Source: a virus
Taxonomy: Duplodnaviria > Caudoviricetes
Virus record (IMG/VR): IMGVR_UViG_3300030117_007612
Span: 32,001-96,000 of that record
Length of the DNA stretch: 64,000 nucleotides
Strand: one strand, 5' to 3'
A program made the translations under genes and the position numbers. The first letter of the stretch is position 1. Every line of letters begins with the position of its first letter. The notes beneath the pieces are model-generated. The model saw only the letters and a list, made by a program, of their open reading frames with translations. It did not search any database and had not been told where the DNA came from. Positions 1 through 64,000 of the stretch are shown here, in pieces.

Positions 1-56
1 AGAGCCCCACGTTGCCAACGTGGATGTCGCGGGTTCGAATCCCGTCTCCCGCTCCA
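1..56 (+). tRNA. tRNA-Gly(GCC), 5' end truncated by window edge
   Basis: Anticodon stem CCACG(7-11)/CGTGG(19-23) with loop TTGCCAA; T arm GCGGG-TTCGAAT-CCCGT (29-45); acceptor 3' strand CTCCCGC, discriminator T, encoded CCA (54-56), then a T run. Confidence 0.93.
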
Positions 57-96
57 TTTTTTTTGTTGAACTTCTATATACTATAGAGAGGTTTTA

Positions 97-699
97 ATGA
101 AAAATATATTTTTTCTACTTTTTCTTATAGGTTGCAGCAATCCAGCAGAATTAAAAGTAAGTGAGCTTGATACCTCCCAACAGGAGCAAGTAGATCCACC
201 AGAACCGCCAGTTTTTGGTGTAATTGCAAATGAGGATTGCTCCCATGTAAATGTGGGAGATAAAGCATGCAATTTAAGATTACTTGATCAAAACGGTGAA
301 ATTTGGGAATTATATGATTTGATTGGAAATGTGGTAGTCTTGGATTTTTCAACTTCGTGGTGCGGGCCATGCCAAACGGTAGGTCATTATTTACAGCCTT
401 TGCAAGACGATTATCAGTCAATGGATGTTAGTATTGTTACGATTTTAATCGATGGATATGTGCCGGGTACCCCACCTAGCGAATACGACATGAATGATTG
501 GGTTAGTTCCCACAATGTTACATCGGTCTCTGTTCTACAAGGCGCCCGCGACTTAGTCATGGATCCAACAGGTGTAGAAGGATATATAATATCTTCTTTT
601 CCTACATTCTTTTATATCGACAGGAATATGAAATTCTATTCTGGGCATTCGGGATACAACGATCAATATGTGAGAGAAAAAATTGATGAAGCTTTATAA
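97..699 (+). CDS. TlpA/redoxin-family thiol-disulfide oxidoreductase, predicted lipoprotein
   Basis: N-terminal MKNIFFLLFLIGC lipobox; VVVLDFSTSWCGPC thioredoxin motif; cis-Pro motif SSFPTFFYID. Confidence 0.85.
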   Translation: MKNIFFLLFLIGCSNPAELKVSELDTSQQEQVDPPEPPVFGVIANEDCSHVNVGDKACNLRLLDQNGEIWELYDLIGNVVVLDFSTSWCGPCQTVGHYLQPLQDDYQSMDVSIVTILIDGYVPGTPPSEYDMNDWVSSHNVTSVSVLQGARDLVMDPTGVEGYIISSFPTFFYIDRNMKFYSGHSGYNDQYVREKIDEAL

Positions 700-708
700 T
701 TGATTTTA

Positions 709-738
709 TTGTGATATAGTGTTAATATTATCTATAAT
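709..738 (+). promoter_or_regulatory. Possible sigma70-type promoter upstream of phoH
   Basis: TTGTGA(709-714)-N18-TATAAT(733-738) in an AT-rich intergenic region. Confidence 0.35.
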
Positions 739-764
739 TGAGGCTTAAACAAATAATTATATAA

Positions 765-771
765 CTAATTA
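765..771 (+). promoter_or_regulatory. CTAATTA motif (candidate phage late-promoter element)
   Basis: CTAATTA 20 nt before the ATG at 792, with ATAATTA at 753-759; the same core recurs before structural genes. Confidence 0.35.
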
Positions 772-791
772 TAACAACCAACTAATGTTTT

Positions 792-2129
792 ATGAGAAAG
801 AAAAATTACGTAATTGACACCAGTGTTTATTTAACAGATTCTGAGTCAATAAAAAGTTTTGGAAACAATGACATCATCATCCCCCTGAAGGTCTTGGAAG
901 AGATTGATTGTCACAAGAAAAGGCAAGATAATGTTGGCGCGAATGCGCGTCGAATTATAAGGTTTTTGGATAATTTGTGTCAAAAGGGAGACCTTAGCAA
1001 GGGTGTAAGAATTGAAAAAGGAAAGGGAATCGTATCTGTAAAATCCCTAAACGATGTAGAGTTAAAGTTAAATTCTCTGACACCCAACCTTAACCAAGAT
1101 GTACCAGACCATATTATTGTCGCGACGGCACTTACTGTAAAAAGTGAACAGCCAAATCGAAAAACTGTTATGGTGACAAATGATATTAATATGAGAGTTA
1201 TATGCAACTCTTTAGGATTAGAGTGTGAAGAATATAACCCCGCACAAGTTGTTGAAAACATAGAAAGATTATACACAGGATTTTCGTCCATCTTAGTTGA
1301 CGAACAGACAGTTGATCAACTTTATTCGGGTGAAGAATTAATTTTAGATCAGGAATTAAAGAATGTGTGCCCAAATGAATATTTAATGCTGATTTCAAAC
1401 ACAAATGAAAAAAAGACAGCTCTTGCTCGATATTTGGGGCCTGAAACAGCCTTGAGAAGAATTTCAAAGTTCAAAAAAGGAATATGGGGAGTTACGTCTA
1501 GAAACAAAGAGCAATTATTTGCCCTAGATTTGCTTATGGACCCCACTGTGCCAATAGTCACTCTGGTGGGTAAGGCTGGCTCCGGCAAGACGCTCTGCGC
1601 CATAGCAGCCGGCCTTGAGCAGGTAATGAGTAGTGCCGGCGATTCTAAAGCATATAAAAGAATGATTGTGTCCCGACCGGTCCAACCTTTAGGAAAGGAC
1701 ATAGGATTTCTTCCGGGCACTCTCGAAGACAAGATGACCCCATGGTTGACTCCAATTCAAGACAATTTGAAATTTTTAATGGGCGACGATCGTGCAACAT
1801 TAGATATGTATATGCAAAAAGGCATGATAGAAATTGAAGCACTAACATATATTCGAGGAAGATCTATATCAAACGCATTTATTATTATAGATGAGGCTCA
1901 GAATCTATCTAGTCACGAATTAAAAACAATTATTACGCGCGTCGGAGAAGGAACAAAAATTGTCTTAACCGGCGACATCGAACAGATTGATAGTCCATTC
2001 GTTGATGAAACTACGAATGGCTTGACATATGCAATTGAAAAATTTAAAAATCATACGTTAGCTGGTCACGTAACCTTACATAAGGGAGAGCGCTCCAAGG
2101 TTGCATCACTGGCGGCGAGAATACTATAA
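792..2129 (+). CDS. phoH: PhoH-family ATPase with N-terminal PIN domain (PhoH2/YlaK type)
   Basis: PIN start YVIDTSVY, VLEEID, D-x-x-I and VTNDINMR; Walker A GKAGSGKT; GFLPGTLEDKM, RGRSI, IIIDEAQN, TRVGEGTKIVLTGD PhoH motifs. Confidence 0.92.
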   Translation: MRKKNYVIDTSVYLTDSESIKSFGNNDIIIPLKVLEEIDCHKKRQDNVGANARRIIRFLDNLCQKGDLSKGVRIEKGKGIVSVKSLNDVELKLNSLTPNLNQDVPDHIIVATALTVKSEQPNRKTVMVTNDINMRVICNSLGLECEEYNPAQVVENIERLYTGFSSILVDEQTVDQLYSGEELILDQELKNVCPNEYLMLISNTNEKKTALARYLGPETALRRISKFKKGIWGVTSRNKEQLFALDLLMDPTVPIVTLVGKAGSGKTLCAIAAGLEQVMSSAGDSKAYKRMIVSRPVQPLGKDIGFLPGTLEDKMTPWLTPIQDNLKFLMGDDRATLDMYMQKGMIEIEALTYIRGRSISNAFIIIDEAQNLSSHELKTIITRVGEGTKIVLTGDIEQIDSPFVDETTNGLTYAIEKFKNHTLAGHVTLHKGERSKVASLAARIL

Positions 2130-2141
2130 AAAGAGGTTAAT

Positions 2142-3120: not shown

Positions 3121-3135
3121 TTTTGTTGTTATAAT
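3107..3135 (+). promoter_or_regulatory. sigma70 consensus promoter for the Cas4-like gene and glycan operon 1
   Basis: TTGACG(3107-3112)-N17-TATAAT(3130-3135), 6 nt before the ATG at 3142. Confidence 0.75.
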
Positions 3136-3141
3136 ATAGCT

Positions 3142-3915
3142 ATGACACAAAAATCACATATTTCCTTTTCCGAATTAAAAGAATGGACACAATGCCCGTT
3201 CTACCACAAATTAGTAAGAGTTGACCGTCTCAGCGGATTCAAGGGCAATGAATACACAGCGTTTGGCTCGGCAATTCATTCGGTGTGTGAGAAGAAATTG
3301 CTCTCTGAAGAGGTTGATAATAATTTTTTTATTAAAGAGTTTCAAAAGAATATAGCCGAACTTGATGATGATGTAGAAATCAACAAAAAGATGGTTGTTG
3401 ACATGATGGGGCAAGGAAAGCGCATAATTCCTGAAATTGATGATGCGTTGAAAGATTATTTTGAGTCCTATGAGGTCGTATCCGTAGAAGAATCATTAAT
3501 GGAGCCATTCGATGAAGATTATAATTTTAAAGGATTCATTGATGCTGTTTTGAAAACCCCTGATGGAAAGTATCACATTGTTGATTGGAAGACGTGCTCT
3601 TGGGGTTGGGATGCTCGCCGGCGCTCTGAGCCAATGGTCACTTATCAATTAACCTTTTATAAACATTTTTATGCGAAGAAGCACGGTATTGATCCAAAAA
3701 ATATCGAAACGCACTTCGCACTACTTAAAAGAACTGCAAAATCGGATCGTGTAGAATTTTTTAGGGTCACCTCTGGTCCTCGAAAAACAGAAAATGCAAT
3801 CAAATTATTGCACAAAGCACTATACAATATTAAAAATAAACGATATATTAAGAACCGATTATCTTGCACATCCGGATATGGGTGCAAATTTTATAAGACA
3901 GAACACTGTCCTTGA
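3142..3915 (+). CDS. Cas4-like/RecB-family PD-(D/E)XK exonuclease with probable Fe-S staple
   Basis: HISFSEL...QCP at the N-terminus; FKGFIDAV...IVDWKT catalytic motifs; QLxxY; three C-terminal cysteines (CTSGYGCKFYKTEHC). Confidence 0.8.
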   Translation: MTQKSHISFSELKEWTQCPFYHKLVRVDRLSGFKGNEYTAFGSAIHSVCEKKLLSEEVDNNFFIKEFQKNIAELDDDVEINKKMVVDMMGQGKRIIPEIDDALKDYFESYEVVSVEESLMEPFDEDYNFKGFIDAVLKTPDGKYHIVDWKTCSWGWDARRRSEPMVTYQLTFYKHFYAKKHGIDPKNIETHFALLKRTAKSDRVEFFRVTSGPRKTENAIKLLHKALYNIKNKRYIKNRLSCTSGYGCKFYKTEHCP

Positions 3916-3924
3916 GGAACATAT

Positions 3925-28236: not shown

Positions 28237-28900
28237 AAAGCATTATTTTACCCAAGATCATGAAGATGCGATAGTTCAATATACAAAAACAAATTGCGTA
28301 AGAGAAAGAACGGAATTGTATGTAAAATGGATTGAACCAGCGTTTAATGAGATGGTGGATAAGATTGTTTTTACTTACAAATTTACAACCTTGCCAAATA
28401 TTCACGACTTGAGGTGTGAATGCAAGGTGTGGCTTACCACCATTCTTGATAAATATGATCCCAACAAGGGATCAAAGGCGTTTTCTTACTTTAGCGTTAT
28501 AACTAAAAATTGGTTTATTCATAAAGTTAAAAAACAGCAAAAACAAAACAAAAGAGAAGTTGACTTAGACAACATTTCTAAAGATTACGAAGAGCGGTAT
28601 CTCTCGACCACCATGCCTTATCTTGAGGATCGAGAGAAAGAGGAGTTTTGGAGACATTTATACAAAGAGATGGCATCATGGGATCCCGATATGATGAAGG
28701 AGAATGAAAGAAAAGTATACGAAGCCATAAAAATTCTTTTTGATAATAGCGAAAGCATAGAAATTTTTAACAAAAAAGCTATTTATTTATACCTGAGAGA
28801 GATCACGGGACTTAACACCAAGCAGGTTGTTAATAATTTAAACAAACTTAGAAAAAAATATAAAACTTTTAAAAGAAATTGGGACAAAGGCGACACATGA
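28178..28900 (+). CDS. Phage-encoded RNA polymerase sigma factor-like protein
   Basis: LDKYDPNKGSKAFSYFSVITKNW resembles sigma region 2 (FDPxKGxKFSTY); C-terminal LREITGLNTKQV HTH resembles region 4. Confidence 0.65.
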   Translation: MTENQSKPKPKRRKRRSKNKKHYFTQDHEDAIVQYTKTNCVRERTELYVKWIEPAFNEMVDKIVFTYKFTTLPNIHDLRCECKVWLTTILDKYDPNKGSKAFSYFSVITKNWFIHKVKKQQKQNKREVDLDNISKDYEERYLSTTMPYLEDREKEEFWRHLYKEMASWDPDMMKENERKVYEAIKILFDNSESIEIFNKKAIYLYLREITGLNTKQVVNNLNKLRKKYKTFKRNWDKGDT

Positions 28901-29199: not shown

Positions 29200-30336
29200 A
29201 TGTCGTGGCAAAAAAGACTTATCAATCACACAGAACTCGGCGGTCCCGAAGGCATACTGGACATATTAGCAGAGACCATAAAGGGCGTATTCAACCCAAA
29301 TACGAATGCAGGTAGAACTCAATTTAGGGCTTTAGTACTCGACGATTCGGTAAGCCTAAATATTTCTGATGTTGCGCAACTCGGCGGATTAAATATCGAC
29401 GGCGCCGAAGTTGAAAGTGTGTATGCAAATACTTTTCGTCAAGGCGTCCGCGTTAGAATTGTTGAAGAGGATTCGCCCCATGGATGCTTACCTTCACCAA
29501 AATCTATATTGCGACCAGATCAGGCCGACTTAAATTCAATTGCAATGCATCCATTGGCCATATCGCAAGTTGTTTATGAAGATTCACTTCAAAGCACTCT
29601 GCGACCCGGCGACATTGTTTGGTGCACCTACGAGCGCGGCCCTGACGGCTCGAAAACACGAAATTTACAGATTATGCCAAAGGAATATATTCAAAAAGCT
29701 GACAGCAGAGTAACAGGTTTATCTCACAGGCCGATGGCTATTACTGCGATGAGGGGTCCGTCTAAATCATTAGATGAAATGTATGGTGATCGCAGCGCCT
29801 TTACGACCCCCACTGCTCAAGAAACTTTAGACCACTTAAGATCAATTTATCCCGGCGCCTCAGAAGAATTTTTATTTGGACTTATGGGCAACATCAACTC
29901 TGAAAGTGCATTTGATAATATGATCGCCGGCGATCCGCCCAGAACCGAGTACGGCAGAGAAAGAGCCCTCCTCGGCCGCGGCCTACACGGTGTCGAAGGA
30001 GATTACTGTTCACATGGTCACTATCAAATGAATATCTGCGGCAAGACCTACGCCGGCAGCGAGTACATCAGGTGGGCTAGCAATGGCACAGTTGATCCTG
30101 CAAAGGATAAGGTTGAAACAGCTAAGCTAATGTGGAATTGGAAAGGTCAGAGTGAATATGTTAAATACTGGATGGAATCGCAAGGCGCAGATCCGACGAG
30201 CAGCCGACCCCCTCGCTATGGCAGCTGGACAGAATTTATTATGAGAGACTTTGAAAATTGCCTGACATGCGACCACGACGGCCATATTGCTAAACGGGAA
30301 GCCGCATCCAGACAATTACGAAATCAATTAAATTAG
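29200..30336 (+). CDS. Baseplate hub-associated protein with C-terminal phage tail lysozyme-like domain
   Basis: LFGLMGNINSESAF and GHYQ match the GxxGNxxxES lysozyme pattern; N-terminal VRVRI/GDIVW OB-fold-like; position at the start of the baseplate cluster. Confidence 0.6.
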   Translation: MSWQKRLINHTELGGPEGILDILAETIKGVFNPNTNAGRTQFRALVLDDSVSLNISDVAQLGGLNIDGAEVESVYANTFRQGVRVRIVEEDSPHGCLPSPKSILRPDQADLNSIAMHPLAISQVVYEDSLQSTLRPGDIVWCTYERGPDGSKTRNLQIMPKEYIQKADSRVTGLSHRPMAITAMRGPSKSLDEMYGDRSAFTTPTAQETLDHLRSIYPGASEEFLFGLMGNINSESAFDNMIAGDPPRTEYGRERALLGRGLHGVEGDYCSHGHYQMNICGKTYAGSEYIRWASNGTVDPAKDKVETAKLMWNWKGQSEYVKYWMESQGADPTSSRPPRYGSWTEFIMRDFENCLTCDHDGHIAKREAASRQLRNQLN

Positions 30337-44800: not shown

Positions 44801-47800
44801 TGTGAACAATGCAAAATTCAGGCACTATGAGCAGATCGCAAGCTCTGATATGATTAATATCATGAACACAGACGATCATATATTTGGCGCTAACCAAAGA
44901 CCTACAGAGTATCACTTTACAATTGAAAAGAGCATGTACGATGTTATTTCACAAGAGATAATCAATATATTTGCCGGCATCGTCGATTTTAACAACTTAA
45001 TTGGAGAGCCCGTCAATCGATACAGAGATGAATACAAAGATTTAAGTAAATTACGTACAATTTTCTTTGACAAAGTTGGAACAACTCCTGATATAAACAG
45101 GTATTTAGATTTCTATAAGTGGTTTGATGATGCTTTGTCTTTGGTTATTAGACAGTTAGTGCCTGCAACTGCTGAGATCTCAGATGATTTATACAACGTT
45201 GTAGAAGAGCACGCGCTTGAAAGAAACAAATATAAAACACCATTTCCAACTATGGAATTCAAAGATCAAATTCCCGAGACCTTCATAAGAGGTATCGAAG
45301 AACTTGAGTATAGTTGGAAATTTGGGCACTCACCACTGCCCGGATCTAATAGGCCACAATATCAAAAAGGGTTGTATTGGAAATCAAGAGCCGAAAAAGG
45401 CAGCGGCCCATCAGCAACTGTTGCGGAGCTTAGTATTAGATCTGCATCTTTGGGCCCATTCATCACCTCTGCCGCCGGCTCTAAGTATACAAATTCATTT
45501 GCAATTGATATAGGTAGAGAAGAATTAAGAGATATAATCCACTCAAATCCACATTTTAGCCAAAGCCTGCCTACCTTATCTAAAGTTGATGGCACTACGT
45601 ATTCGGGCAACGCCCACGCCATAAGGACATTTGCAAAAACGTACAAGTTTAGAGTTTCTAGTCCAGTTGAATCAGTTTTTAAAGGCGGAGTAAACTTCTC
45701 GCCCGGCAAGAGTATGGAAAAAGCCTACAATGCCGTTGCTCCTCATGGGCCTATAGAGGCACATGGATCAATAGGGGGTGTTGGGTGCGAAAATTGTAAA
45801 CTACCGGTCAACATCCTGTTTGCAAGATCTGAAGACTTTGTGCCGTACAATGATTTGTATGATCCTCTTTCTCCGCATGCAAAAATTAAAATGAAGATGA
45901 AGGTTGCACACGGCCGTGATTCTAACAAAGAGATGTTAGGATATGCTACTGCAAAATCTGCCTTCTTCTTCCCGATGAATATTATAAGCGGTACAGTTAA
46001 CCCTGACATGTTGATAAATACTGATGGCGTCGAGGTCGACCGAAAGACCGGCCGTCGACACTTGGAGACGCCCAACAATGCGTATGAGAAGAGGATCTCA
46101 GGCAGCATAACCAACATTCATAACGATGTCTATGGGCCCCACATGGAGAAGCCGATGCAAGGGCCTTTCACCGAGCATTACGTAGGTGGCCACCAGTCAC
46201 GCCATGTTTCATTAAATACAGGTTCTTGGACCAGTGGGTATAGCCACCAATTAAATCGCCCAGAAGCTTGGAGAATCTACATTGGAAGATGTGGTACTCC
46301 GGGATCCATGCCTGACGGTGCAACTGCTGTTGGAATTGTGGGTCCGGACTATCCGCCCCCTGATTTGAAATTATCACTAACTGGCGACCATCAGGTGTCA
46401 GATGTTTATCCATACATAAAATTCCCTAGGGCAGAATATTATCGCGACGGAACTGCAAAGCGCCCAGTCAATATTGGGAACATCCATCATACTACCGGTT
46501 CGCCTACAATTTTAGGTAACTTTAACCATCGGTATGATTATGTACAAACAGCCGGAAGAGCTAGTCAGAAAAGATATCTCAAAGATACATTTGAGCACAA
46601 TTATGGAGATCGTCCGCCGGGAGTATTCGGCAGCAGCAGCATAGAAACAGTTCACCACCATACATCGTCACTCTTGCCACTTAGGTTCTTGCGAGAAAAC
46701 CCAAAATCAGGATATACTTCTGCACCAACTACAGCTAGTGCGCACTTCTTCGATGTAACGAATATCCACACGCTGATATCTGTAAGCACAGGTTCGAAGG
46801 ATCACAGCATTGGCCCGGGCGGATTCGGAAACGTATTCGGCGGCATGGAGCAATCAAGAGCTGGTGGCCCCATTGAGAATACTAGCAATCGGTATGCCGG
46901 CCAGACGTCCGATTACGACGGCACCATCTTTATAGTTCCCAAGCGCCGCCGCCGAGATGGCATCTTTACAACACGCTTCTCCGCCCCGGGCGGTCCTGAA
47001 ATTATGAGTCCCGGATATTTAGATATCCATACAGGAGAATTCTCGGTATACAACAGCCTTAACTTTAGAAACTACACTGTAAGATCAAGTGGCAGCGGCG
47101 AAACAATAGGTCAAGGAATAGTCTTTAGCGATAATGTTGCCGATAAAACAACAGGCTTTAAGTCAATTAGAATGCACAACCAGATGAATACTGGTTCTGA
47201 AGATGAGAGATTGCAGATTCGTCAAGGCTTGAGAACCTTACTTACTAGACACGCTGGCCATGGATATGCAGACTCTCAGTATGGTTACGTTCCGGAATCG
47301 AGATATATTGACGAGGATGATAAAGCCCCGGCCAGTTACCACAAGATTTATCGAAACCGACGCAAACATTTGCGAGAAAGAAACACAGACATAGAGTTTA
47401 TAGCAAACACTCACCGAGGTACGGAATATACCCATGGAGACGATCGTGGTGCACCCGGCGGCGGCAGAACCATAATTACGGCCTCGAATTACGACAATTA
47501 TTGGGTTCAACATGTTATTCCGCGATCAGATCTTAACTACTCGTGGATTACTGCTTCTATATTACATGATGTCGGATCCGGCCTCGATCATATCCTCCAT
47601 CCATCGGTAGATGATCATTATGGATATCTGCCGCATTACACAGTCGGCGAGTGGCAATGGCTAGGATACCATTATAGCGGCTTTCTTTCTTCATCAACAT
47701 ATGAAATCTTATCGTCAGATCCAAAGCCCGGCAAACACAACGCCGAGGGTCCATGGGGATCGGGCAGTGCATGGAAGATACCTTACAACTTTATAAGCGC

Positions 47801-50800
47801 TAGCGACTATGTGGTTTATCATGAAACCGGAAGTACGAATCCTTTAGTGCTCGGCGCCGACAAATCAACAATTCCAGCAAATACATTGAATCACATCCCA
47901 ATTGATTTTGTTGGTTTAAATACTGTCATTTACGAAAACATCACATCCAGCACGGCACAACTGGGTTTCCATCTCGATCATCTCACAAGTTCTGACGGCC
48001 GCGGCCCATCGGCCGCGTACCTAGGCCTTCCCCAACACCCGGCATATATTAATGATTCGATGATTGATATAGCCACGTTCTCCACGCCCCACGGCCGTTA
48101 TAATGCGAGGCCACTTCTAAACATGCTAACATTGCATCGTCAAGGTCCATATGGATGGCCATCTTGGAAACAAACTAGGGGTACATCTCACCCAATAATG
48201 CGCTATGAGCGAGAAAGAAACATATTAAGGGCACCATGGGATGCCATTGAAGCACATTTTGGACTTGATCCTCAAAACAGATATTATATTCAACCGGTCA
48301 CATCAAAGTACAAACCAATTCAAGCTGACATTGCACATCCCGGCGCCCCGGGCATCGAGCGCACTCCTGATGAATACTGGAAAAGAAGCAAAGAGCCATA
48401 CGCGAGATTCTACAGCACAAACTACAATCAAATAGTCGCATTACAATCGGACAGGAGGGATATGTTATTTTTCATGGCACCTCCTCGCTTTGTCCACAAT
48501 ACTTGGTGGGACTCGCTGGCATCCACCTTGGCCGAAGACTGGGCCTCCCGCAACCCAGCCACACGTCCACCGGGCCACCCGGCACAAGGCGCCTTCTTAT
48601 ATAAAACGTTTTATAGGGAGACTGTTTGGCCAAGCAGCTTAATGACATATATGTCAAGCTCTAGAGGTCGAGTTGGACCAGTGGGCGACGATGGCGTACA
48701 TTCGACGTACGAAGAGCGTAGATGGCGAAGTACTCATGCTGATAGAGTAACGCTTGGCGAAAGCTTGAATAATTACAAAGATAACAACATCCACGTGCCA
48801 TATCACAACAGGCGATACTCGTACACTTCAGGCAGCCGACTGACACAGAGCAGTTGGCCATTGGACGCTCAGCAGGACTTTTTGACTCGCCAAGGTGATG
48901 CGACTGGGTGGGGTACTACTGGTTCTACCTCACTTAGTGGTAGCACCATTGCCGGCGACCGTGGAGTTATTCGAGGAAGCCCGGGCACTGTCAACGGGCC
49001 TCCTCGCGTGATTTTCCAAAGGCATTTGGTTGCTGTTAGTGGTTCCGGAAACACGGGATCGTTTGGTGGTCCCGGCGCCGGCCCGGGCTTGACCGGATAC
49101 AACGAAGCCATGGGTATAAGCGCCACTGGCGTGCCACTAGGCCACTTGGACCACATGAATGGTTATGGGTTTATTAGTGGCGGATATCACAGGGGCGAGG
49201 GAGAGCTGCAGAATGGATACACAATGTTCCACGGTGGCCCAACCGCGCTGTCAGGCACTGCAGTTGCCGGCGGATATTGGTCCAACCACCTAGGATATCC
49301 CATGATATTACAAATATCGCCCACAGCTCTTTATGCTAGAAAACAAACGCTGTCATCTTATCGTTCAGTGGTTGGTCCGCATGGAATTGAAGTTCCAGAA
49401 ACAGCATCAAACAAATTAGTTGCAGATGCGTTCTCTTCCTCTGCCGGATGGACCGGCAGCATGCAACCAACTACAGGATCCCCATACGCATTGTACACCG
49501 GTAGTGTCGGTAGAACTTGTTGGGGTAACATTGATCTCTTTGGAGGGGAGGCAAAATGGCAGGCCCCAGAATTAGCAGGATATGTATCAAGAAGCTTTAC
49601 TGTTACCGATGAGGGTTACTTTGACCCGATCACAATGACAACCGTTGGATTTGAATTCTCTATAGATAAAACTTGGATAAGCGCATCGTCTGAGCCTTGG
49701 TATACTTCATATGAAGATTACATTTTAGATGGGAGAGCGGTTGCCAAAGAATACTCAATTGTGCCAGAATATAACTCTTCTAGATGGATTCCCGCATCCG
49801 CTTCTGAAGCTGTGCCGGCTCCCTTTATTAGACCATTTTATGGAGGTCAGCCATATTACAACTTTATAGAAATCAATCTTGGTCATACTAGCTCGTGGAG
49901 TGAGGCAATTAAACGACATGATGAGGAAGTAGTGTTCAAGGTTTCACGTGGAGATAATCTTAAAGATTTACTTGGGGTACAAGAGAGCCTTAACAGTACC
50001 AACTGGGGAGAAGCCGCTTGGTCTTGGCCGTCCAGATTGAAATTAAAACTTGACGCTTTTGTAAAGTTTATACCATATGAAGGTTTCTACCCCGCACAAA
50101 GAACCTTGCAATTAGCTGATCAATTTTGGAAATCTCACGGCCAACAAGTTCAAGTCCATCCGGGCCGCGGCTTTCCACCGGGCCCGGGCTTTCCCGGTTC
50201 TGTTCCAGAAACGTTTGCAATGGGAGGTGCTGGATATGCAAACAGACTTACTTTTGGCACTGGTGACCCAACCATATCCCCATTTGGGGCGACTTGCAAC
50301 CCAATAGGGGGTCAAATTATACGCCATCCTTACGTCGTCGATTTCAATGGCGGCATTTCACCTTCATATAAGGATTTGTCAAGCGCGTGGCAGGCTCATT
50401 TTACTCCCTCCGGCCGCAGCATTCAATCAGGGTCACAAGGCTGGACCTATCACACGGGCTCAGAATCAATGCTACAAGGCAAGCAACTAGCTCGCCCTCT
50501 TGCCCAGACGCTATTTGCGCCCGGGATTTTATACAACTCAATCAAATCAGGGCTTGCTGTTGATTATCCAATATGTGTGTCAGAGTCTTTCGAAAGGGTT
50601 TGTGTCGCATCACACGAATATGCAGGCACATTTAACCCCACTGACACTACTACAGTTGGCGGTTTTCCTCGCCATGGCGCCGATGGAGACAAGATAGGCA
50701 TAGTGCCAACAGATTATTGGGTTATTTCGGGATCCAGAAAGGCCAACACCGACCCAACACACGGCAGATTCGACTACAGAGTACCATTTGAAGCTATAAT

Positions 50801-54661: not shown

Positions 54662-57600
54662 TGAGCAAAAGTTCAGAATACACTAGCGGCAAGGAGATGT
54701 TTGGTGATTTTTTACCAAAAGTTTATATTGACAAAATAACTTTGTCTGGCAGAGAGGATCTGGGAGAGAACATGATGAAGGTTGAGGTGGAAGTGTCATT
54801 AAAAGACAGCTCCAATGCTACTGGAAACTTTTTGCTATTCGATAACCACGAACTTTGGGACCTAATCAATATAGACGTCGCAGTGACATCAGACCCAAAA
54901 GCCCAAGAGTTTATAGAAGGCCAGCGCAGCATACAAAAGCTTGCATATGCACCCGAGTGGCCACTCGGAATTATTGCGGATGACACCGGCGGGCTTGACA
55001 TGGATCCGCAATATGTGTCGCTTTTTGATGGAGAACCGGCCAATAGTTACTGGAAAGTCACTCATTCAGATCGCAGTGCGGGCGCGTGGATCCGACCAGA
55101 ATTATTTAAGGCAAACTACTCTACACAGAACCTTACAGACATTGTGCACGGCCGCTTAGGAGAGAGACCAGAAAGAGGGTTTGTTGGTGAACAAGATGCC
55201 GGCGTAGAATTACTCAAGTTGTTACCTGAAGTCGCCGAAACTCATGATAGTTCTGCTAAAGTTATCAAAACTCTCACATCAACATTTACTTTTTTTATTC
55301 ATAAGAATATGCTTACCAATTTGCAAGATGCAACTGCCCCGGTTGCCGATGATGCCATGAGTGCACTTATGGAGGTGCTCTATGGCTCCGATACCACCAG
55401 CGCCGTACCGGGCGCCCACATTTTTCCAAATGATTTGTATATATTTGCGTACGCGAGAGTAAACACAGATTCCGACTTCTGGGAAGGTGCAAGCACATCT
55501 GCCGGCGGAATAGACAACATAAACGAGATGCCAGAGCTGCAAAATGAATTTATTGGGGAAGTGGCATACGAACACATGATTGACGGTGGTGAGATCAACT
55601 TTAGAGAGTACAAATATTTTACAGAAGATGATCGTCTTTTTCAGGGCCCATTGGTATTGAATACGAATGGGGATTACGTAAAAGCTTTAAATTATGACAA
55701 CGAGAGAATTGCTAATGAAATAGCTGATAGGGTATTGTCTTTGATAGATACGGAAACCGAAAAAGAAAACGCAGCATTGATATATTATTCATACATTGTT
55801 AGCAATTTGGTTGGCTATGCTGAATACCCTGAAATGTTTTTTCAATTATATCAACAACTTAGGCTTATGTCTGATCGTCGGACTACCACATCTGCCGGCA
55901 AAATAGCAAATGCATTTTCCAATGTGATGGAACAACTCAAAGGAATATTTTTGTCGACAGAAAAAGTCTATAAAAAAATGGTTAGAAATTCTAAATATTT
56001 TGATAGGCGCGTACCCGGATCTGCATCTTCGTCTGGAATAAAATTTTGTGCCCCTTCCGAAATAGATGGCGGGTACGGCATGGGCTCGGCGGATATTTCC
56101 ACTCAGCGCAAGCTGCACTCTTGCGTATTGCCAATGTACGATCACGGACATACCGCTTTTAAGTTTGGCCCATCCCCCCACAGTAAAATATGGTTAACTT
56201 CTGACATTCCGGGAGAAAGGTTTGATCCCTCTGGTACTGACTTGAATACCGGACTTGTTACCGCCGGCGATATATCGGACCCGAGAAATCGTTTAAGCTT
56301 TGATAGAGTTAATGCCGATTTTTTGAAAAAAAGAATTAATGGCTGGTTTATGTTAAACTTGGAAAACATGATGTATAAGGCTATATATCACCCGACTGCC
56401 AAACATTTTGTGCTTACTAAGAAATTAGTGCATCATTTTGGTTTTGGTGTTATTTCAAAATACTTTTTTGTCGACCAAGTCACCCTACAAAGAGCGGCGG
56501 TAGATTATAACGATGCGTCCGAAGTTTGGGGCGTCGGCGCTGCCGGCACAGATAGTGTTTCTATGCCTGTTCTTAGTCGCACCCAAGAACACGTATTCAC
56601 ATCAACATTGACTCGTCAAGCTACTGATGATCCGGGCGATGGAACTGATATATCAAAGACTGCGACAAATCTGAGTATGCGCATAGTAAAGCCGTATTTA
56701 GAGCCTTCTATAGCTACAGGCGGTGGTGATGCAACCTTTGGTGATTCTGATATTACAACTGGTGAGGGTTATTATCCTATTGATTGGTTTGGTACCAACA
56801 ATTCCACCGAAAAATTAGGCTTACAGCGCCGGCGAGATACCTTTTCACCTTTTGAGACGGGAGCCACTGCCGATGATGATCTGTACGGCTATCCAGAGGG
56901 CCCCGGGCATTATGGCACTGGATTACATGCTCAAGTAACTCATCCGGCTTTATTAAAAAATCCCGATAAAATGGAAAAAATATTATTTTTCTATTTTTCT
57001 GAGCCTGTGATGGGAATGTTTGGTGTAGAAGATTGTTCAGCAAAAGCATCATTTACCCATAATGGCGCGCCAATAAAAAAGATTCATTTAAAATACGTGG
57101 CAGACTACAATGTAATTAATAATATTGGTGGCATGTGTTATGTTATATGGAACGAATTGAGAAGGCAGAGAAGCATAATCGAAGATTATTTGGCGTTTGC
57201 TGAAAGGGTGTGCTCTTTTGATAACCGCACTGGGAAATTTAATGAATTTTTCGGAGATCAATTTCACCAAATGTTCTATAATAACCTAGGCTATGCTTGG
57301 TGGACAAGGCCCGTAGCATATTATGTATTAGTTCAAGACTTATTGAACAACAGCTACGGCGGCAACAGCGCAGTTATGCGCGAGAAGACACTTAACATAA
57401 TCCAATCGATCGATCCAACATCTGGTACAATATATGCATTGCGTGAATTTATTGAAGACTTTAACGGTTTAGTTAATGGTTGGCATACCAATTTCCGAGG
57501 CATGCACTTGGGTGACAAGTTTGAAGAGTTAGCCGGCGTATATTCATGGCATAAGAACTTTGAACCTCGTGAAAACACGTTCTCATTCAAAAACCCCATT

Positions 57601-58848
57601 TGCGACCCATTGTTTGATTTCCCATATGGTTACGGCGCCGGCTATCATGGTGCCGGCGACTTTGGCCCTTCTACTGGTGCCGGCATGCCCCTGCCTACCG
57701 GAACATACCCAATTACAGATGCGTTTTCAACATATCATACGATTATGGAAAGCGTAGAGTACGAACAATATGCCCGGGCTATTTCACAATTTAATATGGA
57801 GACCATACGGAAATGCTCGGATGAAGGAATTGTCGACAAACAAGTGACTAGTCTCCAGCTGCTCGTAAAAAGAGCGCTCTTCTCGGCGACGTTTGAAACC
57901 CCCGGCGACGAGGTGCTGCACATACACATGACACCAATCACAACTACGGATAATAATTCGGTTAGTTCTGAAAATGTGGATCCCTATCCGCCATCCGGCA
58001 AAGGCATTCGGGCCCCCACCGCTAAACAATTTGAAATATTTGATAAATTCCTTGACGACTATTCTGACGGGTATACATCCGGCACCAACCGTACGGTCGC
58101 GTTCATCGGCGCCGGCGCCACAACTCAGACATACGATGTGCTGAGGAAAATCGAACTGGGTTTGGTCGATGAAGGAACTGCCCCCGGGGGAATGAGAAAA
58201 GGCGCGTGGGAATTATTTATGGAAGCCACATTGGCTTCTGACGGCAAGTCAGGGAATGGCACCGAAAAAGCCCTAGCCGCCGGCGTATCACGTGCAGGAG
58301 GCGGGAACTTTTACCTTCCGGAGAACACTCCCGGCAGCGAATCAGTAGTAAACAAAGCGTACGACTTTCAAGTACTTCGCGAAAGAATTAGAAAAGGTCT
58401 CCGACGCTATGTAGATCTGTATCTGCAACATTTAAAAGAATGTTCTGGCTTAACTGCAAACCAAATTAATAATCGCTATTTTGCCGGCAACTGGCCCTTT
58501 AACGCCTTGGGATATATTCAGAACGGCCCAGATTCTCAAAATCCATTTCGAGGCGCCGAAAATATGTCGAAAACCCGCGGCTGGGGCCAAATCGATCTTC
58601 CAATGCGCGAATTGATAGAAGATTTGCTTGAGGGCGTTAGAAGATTAAGGGTGATGGGCTTTTGGCCATATTTTGACATAAATGATATCCGTAGCTACAT
58701 GGATTTGGGTGCAGAAGGAGAAGGACTCGGCATCGACATCGCCCTAGGCGCCGCCGACGATGAGGGTGGATATTTCTCCCCACCGGGCGACATGATGATT
58801 TCACCCTATTTGGTTCCCGTGGAGTTCGACTTTGGATCTGGCGATTAA
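54661..58848 (+). CDS. Large (1395 aa) putative structural protein
   Basis: Uninterrupted ORF with TAATG coupling; FGDFLPKVYIDKITL start; no catalytic motif recognised. Confidence 0.72.
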   Translation: MSKSSEYTSGKEMFGDFLPKVYIDKITLSGREDLGENMMKVEVEVSLKDSSNATGNFLLFDNHELWDLINIDVAVTSDPKAQEFIEGQRSIQKLAYAPEWPLGIIADDTGGLDMDPQYVSLFDGEPANSYWKVTHSDRSAGAWIRPELFKANYSTQNLTDIVHGRLGERPERGFVGEQDAGVELLKLLPEVAETHDSSAKVIKTLTSTFTFFIHKNMLTNLQDATAPVADDAMSALMEVLYGSDTTSAVPGAHIFPNDLYIFAYARVNTDSDFWEGASTSAGGIDNINEMPELQNEFIGEVAYEHMIDGGEINFREYKYFTEDDRLFQGPLVLNTNGDYVKALNYDNERIANEIADRVLSLIDTETEKENAALIYYSYIVSNLVGYAEYPEMFFQLYQQLRLMSDRRTTTSAGKIANAFSNVMEQLKGIFLSTEKVYKKMVRNSKYFDRRVPGSASSSGIKFCAPSEIDGGYGMGSADISTQRKLHSCVLPMYDHGHTAFKFGPSPHSKIWLTSDIPGERFDPSGTDLNTGLVTAGDISDPRNRLSFDRVNADFLKKRINGWFMLNLENMMYKAIYHPTAKHFVLTKKLVHHFGFGVISKYFFVDQVTLQRAAVDYNDASEVWGVGAAGTDSVSMPVLSRTQEHVFTSTLTRQATDDPGDGTDISKTATNLSMRIVKPYLEPSIATGGGDATFGDSDITTGEGYYPIDWFGTNNSTEKLGLQRRRDTFSPFETGATADDDLYGYPEGPGHYGTGLHAQVTHPALLKNPDKMEKILFFYFSEPVMGMFGVEDCSAKASFTHNGAPIKKIHLKYVADYNVINNIGGMCYVIWNELRRQRSIIEDYLAFAERVCSFDNRTGKFNEFFGDQFHQMFYNNLGYAWWTRPVAYYVLVQDLLNNSYGGNSAVMREKTLNIIQSIDPTSGTIYALREFIEDFNGLVNGWHTNFRGMHLGDKFEELAGVYSWHKNFEPRENTFSFKNPICDPLFDFPYGYGAGYHGAGDFGPSTGAGMPLPTGTYPITDAFSTYHTIMESVEYEQYARAISQFNMETIRKCSDEGIVDKQVTSLQLLVKRALFSATFETPGDEVLHIHMTPITTTDNNSVSSENVDPYPPSGKGIRAPTAKQFEIFDKFLDDYSDGYTSGTNRTVAFIGAGATTQTYDVLRKIELGLVDEGTAPGGMRKGAWELFMEATLASDGKSGNGTEKALAAGVSRAGGGNFYLPENTPGSESVVNKAYDFQVLRERIRKGLRRYVDLYLQHLKECSGLTANQINNRYFAGNWPFNALGYIQNGPDSQNPFRGAENMSKTRGWGQIDLPMRELIEDLLEGVRRLRVMGFWPYFDINDIRSYMDLGAEGEGLGIDIALGAADDEGGYFSPPGDMMISPYLVPVEFDFGSGD

Positions 58849-58898: not shown

Positions 58899-58905
58899 CT
58901 AATTA
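58899..58905 (+). promoter_or_regulatory. CTAATTA motif (candidate late promoter)
   Basis: 21 nt before the GTG at 58927, upstream of a GGAGG RBS. Confidence 0.45.
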
Positions 58906-58926
58906 ATAACACGGAGGCGACACACA

Positions 58927-59832: not shown

Positions 59833-59848
59833 CAGGAGCACCTAATCA

Positions 59849-60781: not shown

Positions 60782-60792
60782 GGGAGAATCAT

Positions 60793-63700
60793 ATGTCTGA
60801 TATACTTTGGGCCCCGACAACTATAGTCGCTCCAGCCGACAGTGCCGATCCGGCTAGTCGACATGACCTTACCGAAGCAGAGAGAGAATTACGATTCTTT
60901 ACAAAAGCAGATCGGCGCCATGGCTTATCGCCTAGGTATTCTGATCATGCTCTGGCCGGCAAGCAATGCACATACGCCGATTCACAAATATATCAGACTC
61001 CAGAGGCAGATAATTTTAGACGTGAATTGAGAAATTTATGGAAGATAAACGAACACAATAGGTTATCAATAGAACCGCTTCCAAAATTGGATGAACTCCT
61101 AGGAGTACCGGGGGCCCCTCCTCGCTATGCTCACACCCCGTATAATTATCGACCGTCAAGTAAGGTTTCTAAAATCATATTTGGCGTTAGCAACGCAATA
61201 GTAACAAATAACACATTTTACAATAAAAGGTCGATGCCAATAAGAGTAGTGGGAGACCCACAATTTTTCCAAACAGATGAACAATGGAGAACTTATGTGG
61301 CCGGCGGAACATACAATGATGTCGAACATAAAGGTATCATACCCAGCACTCAAGTGGCGGATCACCTACACTCATCAATTGTGCCAATGACCGAAGAACA
61401 GCTAGAAAAATATAATTTAGGTGACACAAAGATAAAATATTTTGCTGATTTTAACATGTCATATAATCTTTATAATCCAAAATTTGAATCTAAGAGCAAG
61501 CAAATTTTGGAAATTGCATTGCCAAATTACTATGCTCTTTGGGCTTCTTCAAAAGTTGATCTGACAAAAACAACAAGAGCAGATCTTATTGGAAAAAGGC
61601 TGGATTATGTTATAGATGAAGAGACTGGTGAGGAGGTTTTGGCGCCCGGTCCAGCCGTACCGGTTGGCTCAGATAAGGACGGATTATATCCCTATGCGCT
61701 GTACCGCGATGCTACGTGGTATAGGCATGCAATTTTAAATAATCATATTTCTCCCGGCCGCGTTGCCGACATGTTTAGGGAAAAGAAGACCGTAGTTCCG
61801 GCAGAGACAATATACAGAACAACAAGACAAGAACAACAAATGGCCAAATATTTGGAGGGATACTCAAATAAAATACAACAAGCGGTTACAGATAATCCTG
61901 AAATATACAATTACATGAAAAATATCTTTTTCGACATTGATGCCGCAGACGAATATTTGAAGGAGCGAACTTCCGCGCAAAAAGTTGCAAAATTATTCCC
62001 AGCGAATATAAATCTCAGAATGAGAACTGAAACACCGGGCTTATTTATCGACATGCTGGAAAAAAGCAATTTAGACGGTAAGTTTATGTTGGGGCTTCAT
62101 CACGGATTTGCACAACAGTCCGACATTTATAAAACTAGAAGAAGAGGTTTTGTTAAGACAGTAGAAGAGCCGATTGAAAAAGTTGACGAAGAGGGGTTTT
62201 CATACAATCTTTTTGTGCATGAAAGTGAAGCAGTGGATTTAAATTGTATGAATTTGTTTAGCTGGTGGGACGCGGGATATAGAAATCCCGGCTCGTTTCA
62301 AAATATTAATTTTGTTGGAAGGTCAACTGAAAGCGTAAAACTCGCAACAGATGCGCAAAATCGATATCGATTTGAAAACACAACAAAGCATTTAAAATTT
62401 GCATCGCAATTGAGAAAGTTTTTTGAAGATAAGTTTGATGCGACCAATAGAAATTATGTTGATGTGCTAAAAGCCACTCCAAGCTATGTTGAAACCGTAG
62501 CATATAGAATTGTTAAACGCGGCGGCGCCGCCGAAGGCCCCAACAAGCTTACACCAATAATTCAAAATTTTTGGATTATGAATTCAAAAAGAATGGATGT
62601 GATGAGCTTTTTTGATACGCAAGTAAAATATGGAGCAAATTATAGGTACGATGTCTACGCATACAAAGTAGTTATTGGCACAAAATATAAATATAAAAAG
62701 TTAAAAATTAGCAAAAGAATATCCGGCGAAGTTAGCGCCGGCCGTGTTGATATCGACGGCGAACCGATAGAGGAGACATGTTTGTCATTCTATGATGCAG
62801 AGACGGGAGAAGACGCCGCACCACTGGCAAAGTTTGACCTAATATCCCCAGCGGATACTTCGTATACAGAAACAGTAAAGTTATTCGATTATGAAGTGCC
62901 AAGAGAACTCGGATACGAATCCGGCCGAACAGAGGGTGTGACCATGGCCACGCTAAGTGAATGGGGCGGGGGTGAAGGAAGGTTGGTACCCGATCATATA
63001 CAAGTATCACCAGACCCCTTTCTTGCTGATTTTGAAATTGAATATGAGCCATCTGCTGAGATTATTGAAGTTCCTTTGTTCGCCTATAATGGCACAGTGC
63101 TTGAAAGCCCGACGTCAAAGCCGGGAATTGAGGTTTTCAAAGTTGAAAACAGAGAAGACACGGCAGGATTTAGGATTAGATTTGATGATGTCCCCACATC
63201 AGAAATGCCGCGAATAGTCACAGCAGGCGACGAAGAATACAGAAGGCGATACCTGCTATCAAATGGTTTTCCAACTAATGCAGAAATTAGATATGACTCA
63301 GTTAGTCCTATTGTGGGCTTAGAGGTTTATAGAACTGAAAGAACCCCATACTTATGGTCGGATTTTAATGGCGAAATGCACAATTTCATTCGCACCCAGC
63401 CCGGAACATCAAATTATGTTTTTATGGAAAAAATAAAAACCAACATAAAGTATTATTACATGTTTAGGTCTGTCGATAGCCACGACACACCCGGGCAATG
63501 TTCTGAGATTTATGAAGTGGAATTAGTCAAAAAAGGAGACATTACATATCCAGTTGTCAAGGTTCATGAAATTCCAACAAGAGATGAACTATCAAAACGC
63601 ATGCAGCAGTTATCGAAACCAATTCGAAGACTTATTAGGATATCTCCCTCCATCTCACAAAGAGTTTTAAACCATAAAAAATTAGCAGAATATGGCACAG

Positions 63701-64000
63701 GATACGAAGCTATGCGACATGTCAGAATGGGAGATGAAAATAAATTTACAATCTGGGATGAACAAAAATTTAAAATCCGCTTAACATCTAAGAAAACTGG
63801 TCGTAAAATTGATTTAAATATAAAATTTAAAACAAACAATATAGAAAAAGCAAGAGAGCCGGATTCTCCACTTGAGCCGGAGTCGCCTTCATCGATACTC
63901 GGGTCTTCGACCACGGTATCGTCGGCGGAATTGGGTGCCGACTTGGCTCCGGCCGGGATCGGGTCGGTCGGACCAACCGGGATCGGGTCGGCCGGATCTG
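60793..64000 (+). CDS. Large putative structural protein, 3' truncated (>1069 aa; absent from the supplied ORF track)
   Basis: AAGGGAG RBS then ATG 60793 (MSDILWAPT...); hand translation shows no stop to the window end; FDTQVKYGANYRYDVYAY and KYYYMFRSVD are FN3-like beta motifs. Confidence 0.8.
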   Translation, partial: MSDILWAPTTIVAPADSADPASRHDLTEAERELRFFTKADRRHGLSPRYSDHALAGKQCTYADSQIYQTPEADNFRRELRNLWKINEHNRLSIEPLPKLDELLGVPGAPPRYAHTPYNYRPSSKVSKIIFGVSNAIVTNNTFYNKRSMPIRVVGDPQFFQTDEQWRTYVAGGTYNDVEHKGIIPSTQVADHLHSSIVPMTEEQLEKYNLGDTKIKYFADFNMSYNLYNPKFESKSKQILEIALPNYYALWASSKVDLTKTTRADLIGKRLDYVIDEETGEEVLAPGPAVPVGSDKDGLYPYALYRDATWYRHAILNNHISPGRVADMFREKKTVVPAETIYRTTRQEQQMAKYLEGYSNKIQQAVTDNPEIYNYMKNIFFDIDAADEYLKERTSAQKVAKLFPANINLRMRTETPGLFIDMLEKSNLDGKFMLGLHHGFAQQSDIYKTRRRGFVKTVEEPIEKVDEEGFSYNLFVHESEAVDLNCMNLFSWWDAGYRNPGSFQNINFVGRSTESVKLATDAQNRYRFENTTKHLKFASQLRKFFEDKFDATNRNYVDVLKATPSYVETVAYRIVKRGGAAEGPNKLTPIIQNFWIMNSKRMDVMSFFDTQVKYGANYRYDVYAYKVVIGTKYKYKKLKISKRISGEVSAGRVDIDGEPIEETCLSFYDAETGEDAAPLAKFDLISPADTSYTETVKLFDYEVPRELGYESGRTEGVTMATLSEWGGGEGRLVPDHIQVSPDPFLADFEIEYEPSAEIIEVPLFAYNGTVLESPTSKPGIEVFKVENREDTAGFRIRFDDVPTSEMPRIVTAGDEEYRRRYLLSNGFPTNAEIRYDSVSPIVGLEVYRTERTPYLWSDFNGEMHNFIRTQPGTSNYVFMEKIKTNIKYYYMFRSVDSHDTPGQCSEIYEVELVKKGDITYPVVKVHEIPTRDELSKRMQQLSKPIRRLIRISPSISQRVLNHKKLAEYGTGYEAMRHVRMGDENKFTIWDEQKFKIRLTSKKTGRKIDLNIKFKTNNIEKAREPDSPLEPESPSSILGSSTTVSSAELGADLAPAGIGSVGPTGIGSAGS
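63953..63991 (+). repeat. Direct repeat CCGGGATCGGGTCGG x2 with 24-nt period, coding GIGS repeats
   Basis: Copies at 63953-63967 and 63977-63991; may continue beyond the window. Confidence 0.7.

Follow-up and report, generated by a model that had tools for sequence, protein, structure and literature searches.

The stretch of DNA considered here, hereafter the window, comprises 64,000 bp (bases 32001-96000) of the 203,368-bp IMG/VR virus record IMGVR_UViG_3300030117_007612, a Caudoviricetes genome rated as complete by CheckV, and is rich in the two palindromic hexamers GCCGGC and GGCGCC. The phage is a myovirus, with homologues of T4-type baseplate and late-sigma proteins, and carries nearly all of its genes on the + strand. 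Its nearest catalogued relative by best protein match is Microcystis phage Mel-JY01 (31.6% identity in the gp6-like baseplate protein), a DNA-level search of the phage database gave no match for the genome, and its DNA recurs across marine metagenomes from several studies. The GC content amounts to 41.0% in the window, along which it ranges from 0.35 to 0.49, and to 42.2% in the genome. All gene-based statistics rely on our own greedy calls of open reading frames (ORFs; n=220), which cover 93.7% of the genome. Palindrome avoidance is classically exemplified by phages. In this phage, a genome-wide excess of short GC-rich perfect palindromes, located mainly at synonymous coding positions and headed by (Y)GCCGGC(R) and GGCGCC, is well supported, and so is its standing as a phage counterpart of the highly iterated palindromes (HIPs) of cyanobacteria.

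The window contains 74 copies of GCCGGC and 47 of GGCGCC, corresponding to about 1.9 sites per kb in the glycan and virion halves alike. An earlier sequence-only reading had counted about 74 and 46 sites by hand, had judged the GC content by eye at 40-45% and had expected about 4-8 copies of each word, which agrees with the counts found and with the mononucleotide expectation of 4.7 for each hexamer. An order-4 Markov model predicts 49.9 GCCGGC and 35.5 GGCGCC in the window, with GCCGGC reaching the top z value of all words. When synonymous codons were permuted within each gene, by which proteins and codon usage are retained, 200 shuffles of the window yielded 17.9±3.9 GCCGGC (maximum 29) and 18.4±3.4 GGCGCC (maximum 27). 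Throughout the genome, 182 GCCGGC stand against 57.4±6.9 in codon shuffles (z 18) and 121 GGCGCC against 49.7 (z 11), and dinucleotide-preserving shuffles lead to 77 and 62 expected sites (z 14.5 and 9.1). In both shuffle controls, the two words rank first and second among all 4096 hexamers by over-representation. The excess over the codon-aware expectation is about 4-fold for GCCGGC and 2.6-fold for GGCGCC in the window and 3.2-fold and 2.4-fold in the genome, whereas a mononucleotide model would put the window excess at 10-16-fold. The enrichment suspected from the letters thus persists in Markov and codon-shuffled comparisons instead of disappearing with them. Compositional patchiness was rejected as its source, since z values of 9-14 are left after per-gene, 60- and 30-codon window and dinucleotide-preserving shuffles; with 30-codon windows, the GCCGGC excess is kept at 179 vs 92. 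Likewise, a by-product of the avoidance of CCWGG, CTCGAG and GAGCTC was rejected by shuffles in which these words were forbidden and which left the excess unaltered (179 vs 54); CCCGGG alone is explained in this way. The excess of short GC-rich palindromes is real, survives every control and is not due to chance.

All 10-kb bins from 0 to 190 kb of the genome are 2-5-fold enriched. The terminal segment at genome 190000-203368 (about 13.4 kb, outside the window, GC 0.46-0.51) contains neither GCCGGC nor GGCGCC, where shuffles expect 4.4 sites and the genome density would give about 13; this end may have a different history or regime. The spacing of the sites is close to random (coefficient of variation 1.18; fraction below 100 bp 0.083 vs 0.097 for an exponential distribution), and a crude spacing test of the genome revealed no quasi-periodic or paired arrangement. 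Periodic or paired spacing as in the logic of Type IIE/IIF enzymes was therefore rejected.

About 80% of the window sites lie in frame, as GCC-GGC (Ala-Gly) in 60 of 74 and as GGC-GCC (Gly-Ala) in 37 of 47 cases. Still, the available evidence supports a pressure that targets DNA and neither protein nor codon choice, because the excess occurs in every frame (weakly for GGCGCC in frame 1), is specific to palindromes and extends to complementary flanks. In the genome, GCCGGC was found 143, 12 and 24 times in the three frames against 46, 1.6 and 6.7 expected, and GGCGCC 92, 8 and 19 times against 39, 4.3 and 5.4, with a weak excess in frame 1 and a clear one in the two others. The out-of-frame sites demand the rare codons CGG or CCG, yet they are 2-7-fold enriched; one of them, at 3617, reads cgc-cgg-cgc as had been reported. 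The DNA-level pressure proposed in the sequence-only reading on account of such sites is therefore backed by the frame tabulation, which places them above background, as well as by palindrome specificity and the flanks. In the window, Ala before GGC is encoded by GCC in 60 of 70 cases (86%) and before other Gly codons in 12 of 36, and GGC follows GCC in 60 of 72 cases and other Ala codons in 10 of 34, although GCC makes up only 29% of all Ala codons; among the Gly codons, GGC leads with 40%. The non-palindromic twins GGCGGC and GCCGCC (codons GGC-GGC and GCC-GCC) reach only 1.3-1.4-fold. The dipeptides Ala-Gly and Gly-Ala occur at 1.23 and 1.05 times their expectation, similar to palindrome-poor kin, by which an amino acid-level cause is rejected. 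Accordingly, the words share with HIPs, as defined by Robinson (1995) and Elhai (2015), an over-representation relative to composition and lower-order words as well as independence of frame and codon.

The sequence-only reading overlooked that the effect covers GC-rich palindromes in general and that it belongs to certain lineages only. In the window, 122 GC-rich perfect palindromes of at least 8 bp stand against 38.0±6.4 expected and 27 of at least 10 bp against 4.9; the class-wide figures are a 2.7-fold enrichment for at least 8 bp and about 5-fold for at least 10 bp. Spacer-less all-GC arms of four bases number 103 vs 26 in the genome and those of five bases 22 vs 3, and five-base arms with one A·T pair 46 vs 12. 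Inverted repeats with loops of 1-6 nucleotides are weakly enriched, palindromes without spacer far more. Altogether, about 150 GC-rich palindromes of at least 10 bp with many different cores lie within coding sequence of the genome. The most over-represented 8-mers are CGCCGGCG (36 vs 6.0), CGGCGCCG (26 vs 3.5) and GGCCGGCC (12 vs 0.9), followed by GCCCGGGC, GGGCGCCC, CGCTAGCG, TGCCGGCA and GCCGCGGC, so that the top of the list consists almost entirely of palindromes. Nevertheless, the two hexamers supply about 159 of 181 (about 88%) of the excess in-frame all-GC palindromic pairs. A test that needs no shuffling showed complementary flanks at palindromic hexamers 1308 times vs 1055 expected (z 9.1), compared with a ratio of 1.00 for non-palindromic words. 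Paired flanks exceed independence at GCCGGC (79 vs 51) and at GGCGCC (49 vs 34). The GCCGGC sites are preceded by a pyrimidine at -1 in 127 of 182 cases and followed by a purine at +6 equally often (70% each), and 99 of 182 conform to YGCCGGCR, for which we estimate about 70 from the base use at codon positions.

Several individual sites illustrate this extension. The 12-bp perfect palindrome GGCGCCGGCGCC at 58108..58119, in which both hexamers are nested, and CCCGGCGCCGGCCCGGG at 49071..49087, where GGCGCC, GCCGGC and CCCGGG overlap, were both present as described before. Perfect palindromes of 14 bp are GATCGCCGGCGATC at 29922..29935 (genome 61922), inside a coding region, and CGGCGGCGCCGCCG at 62520..62533 (genome 94520), and the longest GC-rich one, the 16-bp CCGAGTGGCCACTCGG, lies in coding sequence at 54953..54968 (genome 86953). 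The 10-mer GGCCGCGGCC at 29974..29983 has five copies in the genome; at this position, a strain diverged by 1.9% features GGCTATGGCC, with three adjacent changes and an Arg/Tyr replacement. At 47440..47455, ACGATCGT and GGTGCACC are found, also in relative B, and strain A carries CCGCGG and GGCGCC there, so that six substitutions in 16 bp exchange two palindromes for two others. Further striking single cases between strains are located at window 35408 and 49257. At 46054..46059, the studied genome reads GTCGAC where relatives diverged by 1.9% and 16% both have GCCGGC, turning Ala-Gly into Val-Asp; this change of the first C to T on both strands is a single case and would be expected from deamination of a site with 5-methylcytosine (m5C) following G (G-m5C).

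The distribution among relatives was assessed in a set of kin consisting of IMG/VR contigs and contigs binned into metagenome-assembled genomes (MAGs), all carrying gp6-like homologues. Enriched kin comprise G001, where GC-rich palindromes of at least 8 bp number 81 vs 22, as well as L002, L009, L025, L029, L023, L008, G004, L055 and L060. G002 is neutral (55 vs 59), and two sister phages are depleted in GC-rich palindromes, namely G003 (L042-L045; 7 vs 24-25) and G005 (L050-L052; 4 vs 10), the latter with only 1 vs 9 copies of the two hexamers. In a gp6 tree, the rich state requires at least three changes across well-supported branches, and rich lineages surround the depleted G003 and G005 within the clade, supported at 100/100, to which the studied phage belongs. 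Bacterial contigs of two MAG bins gave observed/expected ratios (O/E) of about 1 or lower and no palindrome excess, as should be the case for a test that behaves on controls. The palindrome excess is lineage-specific, which is well supported. Positional conservation with distant kin (about 39% amino acid identity) was tried and abandoned, as too few dipeptides are conserved and no sign of shared sites appeared. The MAG labels of the kin contigs L053-L060 (Parvibaculum, Gammaproteobacteria, Actinomycetes, Woesearchaeota, Neisseriaceae, Pelagibacter TMED166 and Rhodospirillaceae) are mutually inconsistent and probably reflect mis-binning, as is also suggested by bin G006, which mixes contigs of 32-57% GC.

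Close strains allowed the turnover of sites to be followed, with L068, L083 and L086 at 1.9% divergence and strain B (L069, L073, L076, L078 and L080) at 14.4%. L068 is a Tara contig that differs from the studied genome at 326 positions across 20 kb. Strain B is as palindrome-rich as the studied genome (G000) and likewise free of CCWGG. Over 93 kb, 138 sites of the two hexamers in G000 and 115 in strain B were compared, of which 52 coincide. In-frame sites with conserved amino acids were retained in 52% of cases, compared with 38% of four-fold-degenerate non-palindromic pairs (p 0.012) and 30% of Ala-Gly/Gly-Ala pairs with different coding (p 0.001). A slightly higher conservation also applies to the remaining palindromic hexamers (odds ratio about 1.3; p 0.007 and 9e-6), and in all frames together, the conservation of the two hexamers (38%) does not differ significantly from that of other all-GC non-palindromic words (33%). 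At 1.86% divergence (64 kb), 89 sites are kept, 13 occur in G000 only and 14 in the strain only, whereas a stratified neutral model expects 12.4 destroyed and 3.0 created sites (destroyed/created 4.1). Gains and losses are thus balanced, with losses (about 13.5 vs 12.4) running at about the neutral rate and gains exceeding the single-step neutral expectation, which points to turnover under a continuing creating bias rather than to frozen functional sites. This conclusion is tentative because control words show that the neutral baseline is imperfect. Polarisation by strain B assigned 1 gain and 5 losses and left 11 cases ambiguous, with GC-rich control words being equally loss-heavy. A density upheld by a continuing strand-symmetric bias at the DNA level, with single sites decaying about neutrally and new ones arising, is well supported. 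Fixed sites for the packaging or DNA-binding protein considered in the sequence-only reading are unlikely in view of the fast turnover and the lack of positional conservation.

Two further signatures were looked for in the strain comparisons and rejected. Compensatory changes at mirror positions are not in excess under the correct null, as double substitutions there amount to 66/281 vs 3813/14739 between G000 and strain B. A template-switch signature was not supported either, since substitution clusters have no special tie to palindromes: clusters of at least three mismatches touch palindromes in 20 of 76 cases vs 13% of single mismatches, which is the level predicted by their size, and clusters with swaps on both alleles number 3/76 vs about 1.7 by chance. 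Most palindrome gains are single substitutions. Short, highly divergent patches between strains otherwise 98% identical occur at genome 144243-144400 and window 28780-28830; they look like recombination tracts rather than the outcome of point mutation.

A family search of the complete phage genome revealed no match to PF00145 (C5 cytosine methyltransferases), PF01555 (N4/N6 methyltransferases), PF03852 (Vsr), PF04480 (DUF559 Vsr-like), PF12851 (TET/JBP) or PF00303 (ThyA/dCMP-hydroxymethylase), with positive controls in reference genomes expected to carry these families, except for TET/JBP, whose control itself remained below the threshold. The phage encodes an N6-adenine methyltransferase (PF05869/TIGR01712, with TIGR01712 above the cut-off) at genome 168692-169186, just after DnaE, and a weak Dam-family ORF at genome 179315-180082; adenine methyltransferases cannot act on words consisting of G and C only. 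The cytosine methylation or hypermodification pathway of the phage that had been suggested as a cause consequently lacks a recognisable gene in any of the six families. Furthermore, CCWGG occurs once in 203 kb vs about 241 expected, an avoidance confined to the studied phage and its close strains, and none of the 91 Pro-Gly pairs in the window is coded CCA-GGN or CCT-GGN. CTCGAG (0 vs 22-24), GAGCTC (0 vs 26-27) and CAGCTG (19 vs 45) are avoided in the genome, and GAGCTC is missing from nearly all kin contigs of the clade. The near-total avoidance of the three restriction sites CCWGG, CTCGAG and GAGCTC argues against a global hypermodification of cytosines.

Among further features, the phage carries a tRNA-Gly(GCC), the reader of GGC, at genome 31982-32056, which crosses window base 1 and is cut by the window edge, as well as tRNAs for Arg(TCT), Asn(GTT), Leu(TAA), Lys(TTT) and Met(CAT). 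A tmRNA of the standard one-piece type, with the tag ANNNLHFEQRLAA, is uninformative on the host; genome 26533-26865 also belongs to this set of RNA genes. A PD-(D/E)XK nuclease of 257 amino acids (PF12705, RecB/AddB-like) is encoded on the + strand at window 3142-3915, upstream of the glycan gene cluster. The annotation of near-identical strains includes DnaE, a short PolA, a RecA-like protein, gp32, UvdE and Mre11/Rad50. In L085/L086 (1.9% diverged strains), the gene for the UV-damage endonuclease UvdE (PF03851) adjoins those of the RecA-like protein and gp32, after PolA. The UvdE homologue of S. pombe also nicks at mismatches, and the phage-borne enzyme is a possible mismatch-processing activity.

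The comparison with cyanobacterial HIPs made in the sequence-only reading proved apt, since Elhai (2015, PMC4390886) lists exactly these words as alternate HIPs, namely GGCGCC for Calothrix PCC 7103 and, for Oscillatoria PCC 10802, RCCGGY with a drift towards GCCGGC. They take the place of HIP1, each coinciding with the gain of a cognate m5C methyltransferase, and in most other cyanobacteria with such methyltransferases the same words are depleted (PMC4390886). Elhai proposed that mismatch repair directed by G-m5C fixes those mutations by which methylatable sites arise (PMC4390886). HIP1 itself, GCGATCGC, is the general cyanobacterial form with an excess of 15-300-fold, and when related genomes are compared, HIP sites persist better than control words (Xu et al., 2018, PMC5861425). 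The phage resembles the alternate HIPs in the same two words, in their location in coding DNA, in all frames and independently of codons, in lineage specificity with under-representation in relatives, and, as for HIPs in general, in flanks that extend the palindrome, as in GGCGATCGCC; the split into rich and depleted sister phages mirrors Elhai's split among cyanobacteria. It differs in that the carrier is a lytic-type phage genome and not a cell, in the joint occurrence of both words amid further GC-rich palindromes that are generally in excess, in the lack of a cognate methyltransferase, and in an excess of 3-fold by codon-aware and 10-16-fold by compositional expectation compared with 15-300-fold for HIP1. 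In addition, when strains are compared, the phage sites exceed controls in conservation only weakly, and their spacing is not periodic. Literature searches gave no account of phages enriched in GCCGGC/GGCGCC or HIP-like words.

A second relevant system is ScmA of Caulobacter crescentus, a solitary m5C methyltransferase whose target is the first C in YGCCGGCR and which has a functional link to the Vsr-like nuclease VsrA (Matthey et al., 2026, PMC12907096). The phage sites share the GCCGGC core with a pyrimidine at -1 and a purine at +6, and a methyl group on the first C would create the G-m5C on which the Elhai model is built; the C-to-T change at 46054 affects exactly this position on both strands. 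Neither gene is present in the phage, and the paper on ScmA reports no motif excess driven by repair. Classical very short patch (VSP) repair, which acts on T:G mismatches only and at one position, cannot create an excess at both synonymous positions. The oligonucleotide abundance of E. coli is reportedly shaped by Dcm/Vsr, according to work attributed to Bhagwat and McClelland and to Merkl et al., both from 1992. The likeness to Dcm/Vsr lies in a repair at cytosine methyltransferase sites that shifts word abundance in favour of the methylated palindrome at the expense of its neighbours, whereas in the phage the transition neighbours are not specially depleted and CCWGG is almost absent. Finally, phages avoid restriction-site palindromes (Rocha et al., 2001, as presented by Rusinov et al., 2018, PMC6286503). 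The studied genome follows this pattern for CCWGG, CTCGAG, GAGCTC and CAGCTG, and its sister lineages avoid GC-rich palindromes generally; of opposite sign is the excess of Type II-like sites (those of NaeI, NarI, EagI, BssHII, NheI, FseI, SrfI and SgrAI).

The explanation we favour, with a probability of roughly 0.35, is host cytosine methylation coupled to biased mismatch correction, in keeping with the methyl-directed repair bias put forward in the sequence-only reading. Host methyltransferases of the RCCGGY/YGCCGGCR and GRCGYC/GGCGCC type would methylate the phage DNA, and a methylation-coupled correction would resolve mismatches towards the strand that carries or creates a methylatable palindrome, possibly by the G-m5C-directed repair of Elhai or by a Vsr-like very-short-patch repair acting on heteroduplexes of replication or recombination. 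The palindromes would then be by-products of repair rather than functional sites, and the depletion in sister phages may reflect hosts that pair such methyltransferases with restriction enzymes. This explanation is favoured because it fits several observations: which two words lead and how they are flanked, the symmetry between strands, a turnover biased towards creation, the lack of modification genes in the phage and the dichotomy of enriched and depleted lineages. Several results weigh against it. The phage itself encodes no recognisable cytosine methyltransferase or Vsr. CGGCCG, GCGCGC, GCTAGC, CCTAGG, GCATGC and CCATGG are also enriched, as are AT-rich palindromes (at least 10 bp 326 vs 225; 12 bp 73 vs 43), and two or three site-specific methyltransferases are not an obvious cause of such breadth. 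The deamination neighbour GTCGGC/GCCGAC is not depleted (O/E 1.18, or 0.95 with a dicodon shuffle), and GCTGGC/GCCAGC (0.77) does not fall below the transversion neighbour GCAGGC/GCCTGC (0.76). A selective depletion of C-to-T neighbours of the VSP type is therefore absent, and the equal depletion of transversion neighbours argues against classical T:G-only VSP repair. Hence, both the breadth of enriched palindromes and the lack of a transition-specific depletion are not readily explained by host methylation. The neutral baseline for created sites is also imperfect, with destroyed/created ratios of 2.0 among all-GC hexamers that are not palindromic, compared with 1.1 among AT palindromes. Moreover, it would have to be assumed that host mismatch repair acts on the DNA of a phage with replisome and recombination genes of its own (DnaE, PolA, RecA-like, UvdE).

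A weak selection acting on how many GC-rich palindromes there are or how densely they lie, with the palindromes bound by a dimeric phage or host protein and mutually replaceable, seems rather unlikely, yet it is the likeliest of the alternatives; genome compaction, the organisation of recombination or replication and a transformation-like uptake as proposed for HIP1 are conceivable roles. Palindromy, complementary flanks and the preference for a spacer of zero fit the recognition of duplex DNA by a symmetric dimer, and the higher retention of in-frame sites with conserved amino acids and of other palindromic hexamers, as well as the clustered substitutions at window 35408 and 47440 that swap one palindrome for another in place, point in the same direction. 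Selection for a single site does not agree with the many enriched words, and the all-frame conservation is indistinguishable from that of control words. Likewise, losses at 1.9% divergence are neutral, with 27 toggles vs about 11 inferred for a fixation-bias equilibrium by a back-of-envelope calculation, the spacing is near random, and neither both-allele swaps nor mirror-position doubles rise above chance. That a sequence-agnostic, duplex-symmetric process, be it the replisome or repair of the phage or a function of the host, actively writes GC-rich palindromes into coding DNA is about as doubtful, at a slightly lower likelihood. Its narrower form, in which the replication or recombination machinery of the phage generates palindromes irrespective of sequence by template switching or quasi-palindrome correction, appears improbable. 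Such a mutational process is in line with an enrichment that rises with arm length and GC and spans many cores including some AT-rich ones, with an apparently raised creation at neutral loss, and with multi-nucleotide clusters that make or exchange palindromes at genome 60780 (three changes leading to GATATATC) and window 29975 and 47440. Ripley is said to have described quasi-palindrome mutagenesis in T4, a precedent for palindrome-making mutation. Still, the clusters touch palindromes no more than their size predicts, gains are mostly single substitutions, and looped inverted repeats, the classical product of an intrastrand switch, are weakly enriched. In addition, a generic process would not draw most of the in-frame all-GC excess from two hexamers, and close kin with apparently similar core genes are palindrome-poor.

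Explanations by translation or by artefact are essentially excluded. That the sites are targets of a cytosine modification encoded by the phage, or that they result indirectly from patchy composition or the avoidance of restriction sites, is very improbable. The avoidance of CCWGG, CTCGAG and GAGCTC does force codons (CCC/CCG before Gly) and explains the excess of CCCGGG, and the GC content varies considerably along the window, but word-avoiding shuffles leave the excess in place and per-gene and 30-codon shuffles control for patchiness. Moreover, homologues of C5/N4 methyltransferases, TET/JBP and dCMP-hydroxymethylase are lacking in the phage, and the near absence of three restriction sites speaks against cytosines that are hypermodified globally. 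Least credible of all is a translational preference for the codon pairs GCC-GGC and GGC-GCC aided by the tRNA-Gly(GCC) of the phage, despite the predominance of in-frame sites, the 40% share of GGC among Gly codons and the presence of this tRNA. It is largely refuted by the frame-independent and palindrome-specific enrichment: the two other frames are enriched in spite of the rare CGG and CCG, GGC-GGC and GCC-GCC hardly exceed expectation, decoding cannot yield complementary flanks or palindromes of 8-14 bp, and sister phages are depleted in the same words.

A phage clade in which some members feature a 3-7-fold excess of GC-rich, Type II-like palindromes and sisters avoid them would not have been expected. 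Its words coincide with those of the cyanobacterial alternate HIPs, whose origin by biased repair or by function is still debated. To tell mutation or repair bias apart from selection, a 200-kb phage with abundant natural strain variation in Tara and JGI metagenomes, dated turnover and rich as well as poor sisters is a far simpler object than a cyanobacterium of 5 Mb. If host methylation coupled to biased correction holds true, the enriched and avoided words together would be an imprint of the methylome and restriction repertoire of the host and would aid host prediction for uncultured phages. If a palindrome-writing process is at work instead, it would represent a new directional mutational or gene-conversion force that is switched on and off between sister lineages, and the phage would provide a small and tractable system for the 30-year-old HIP problem.

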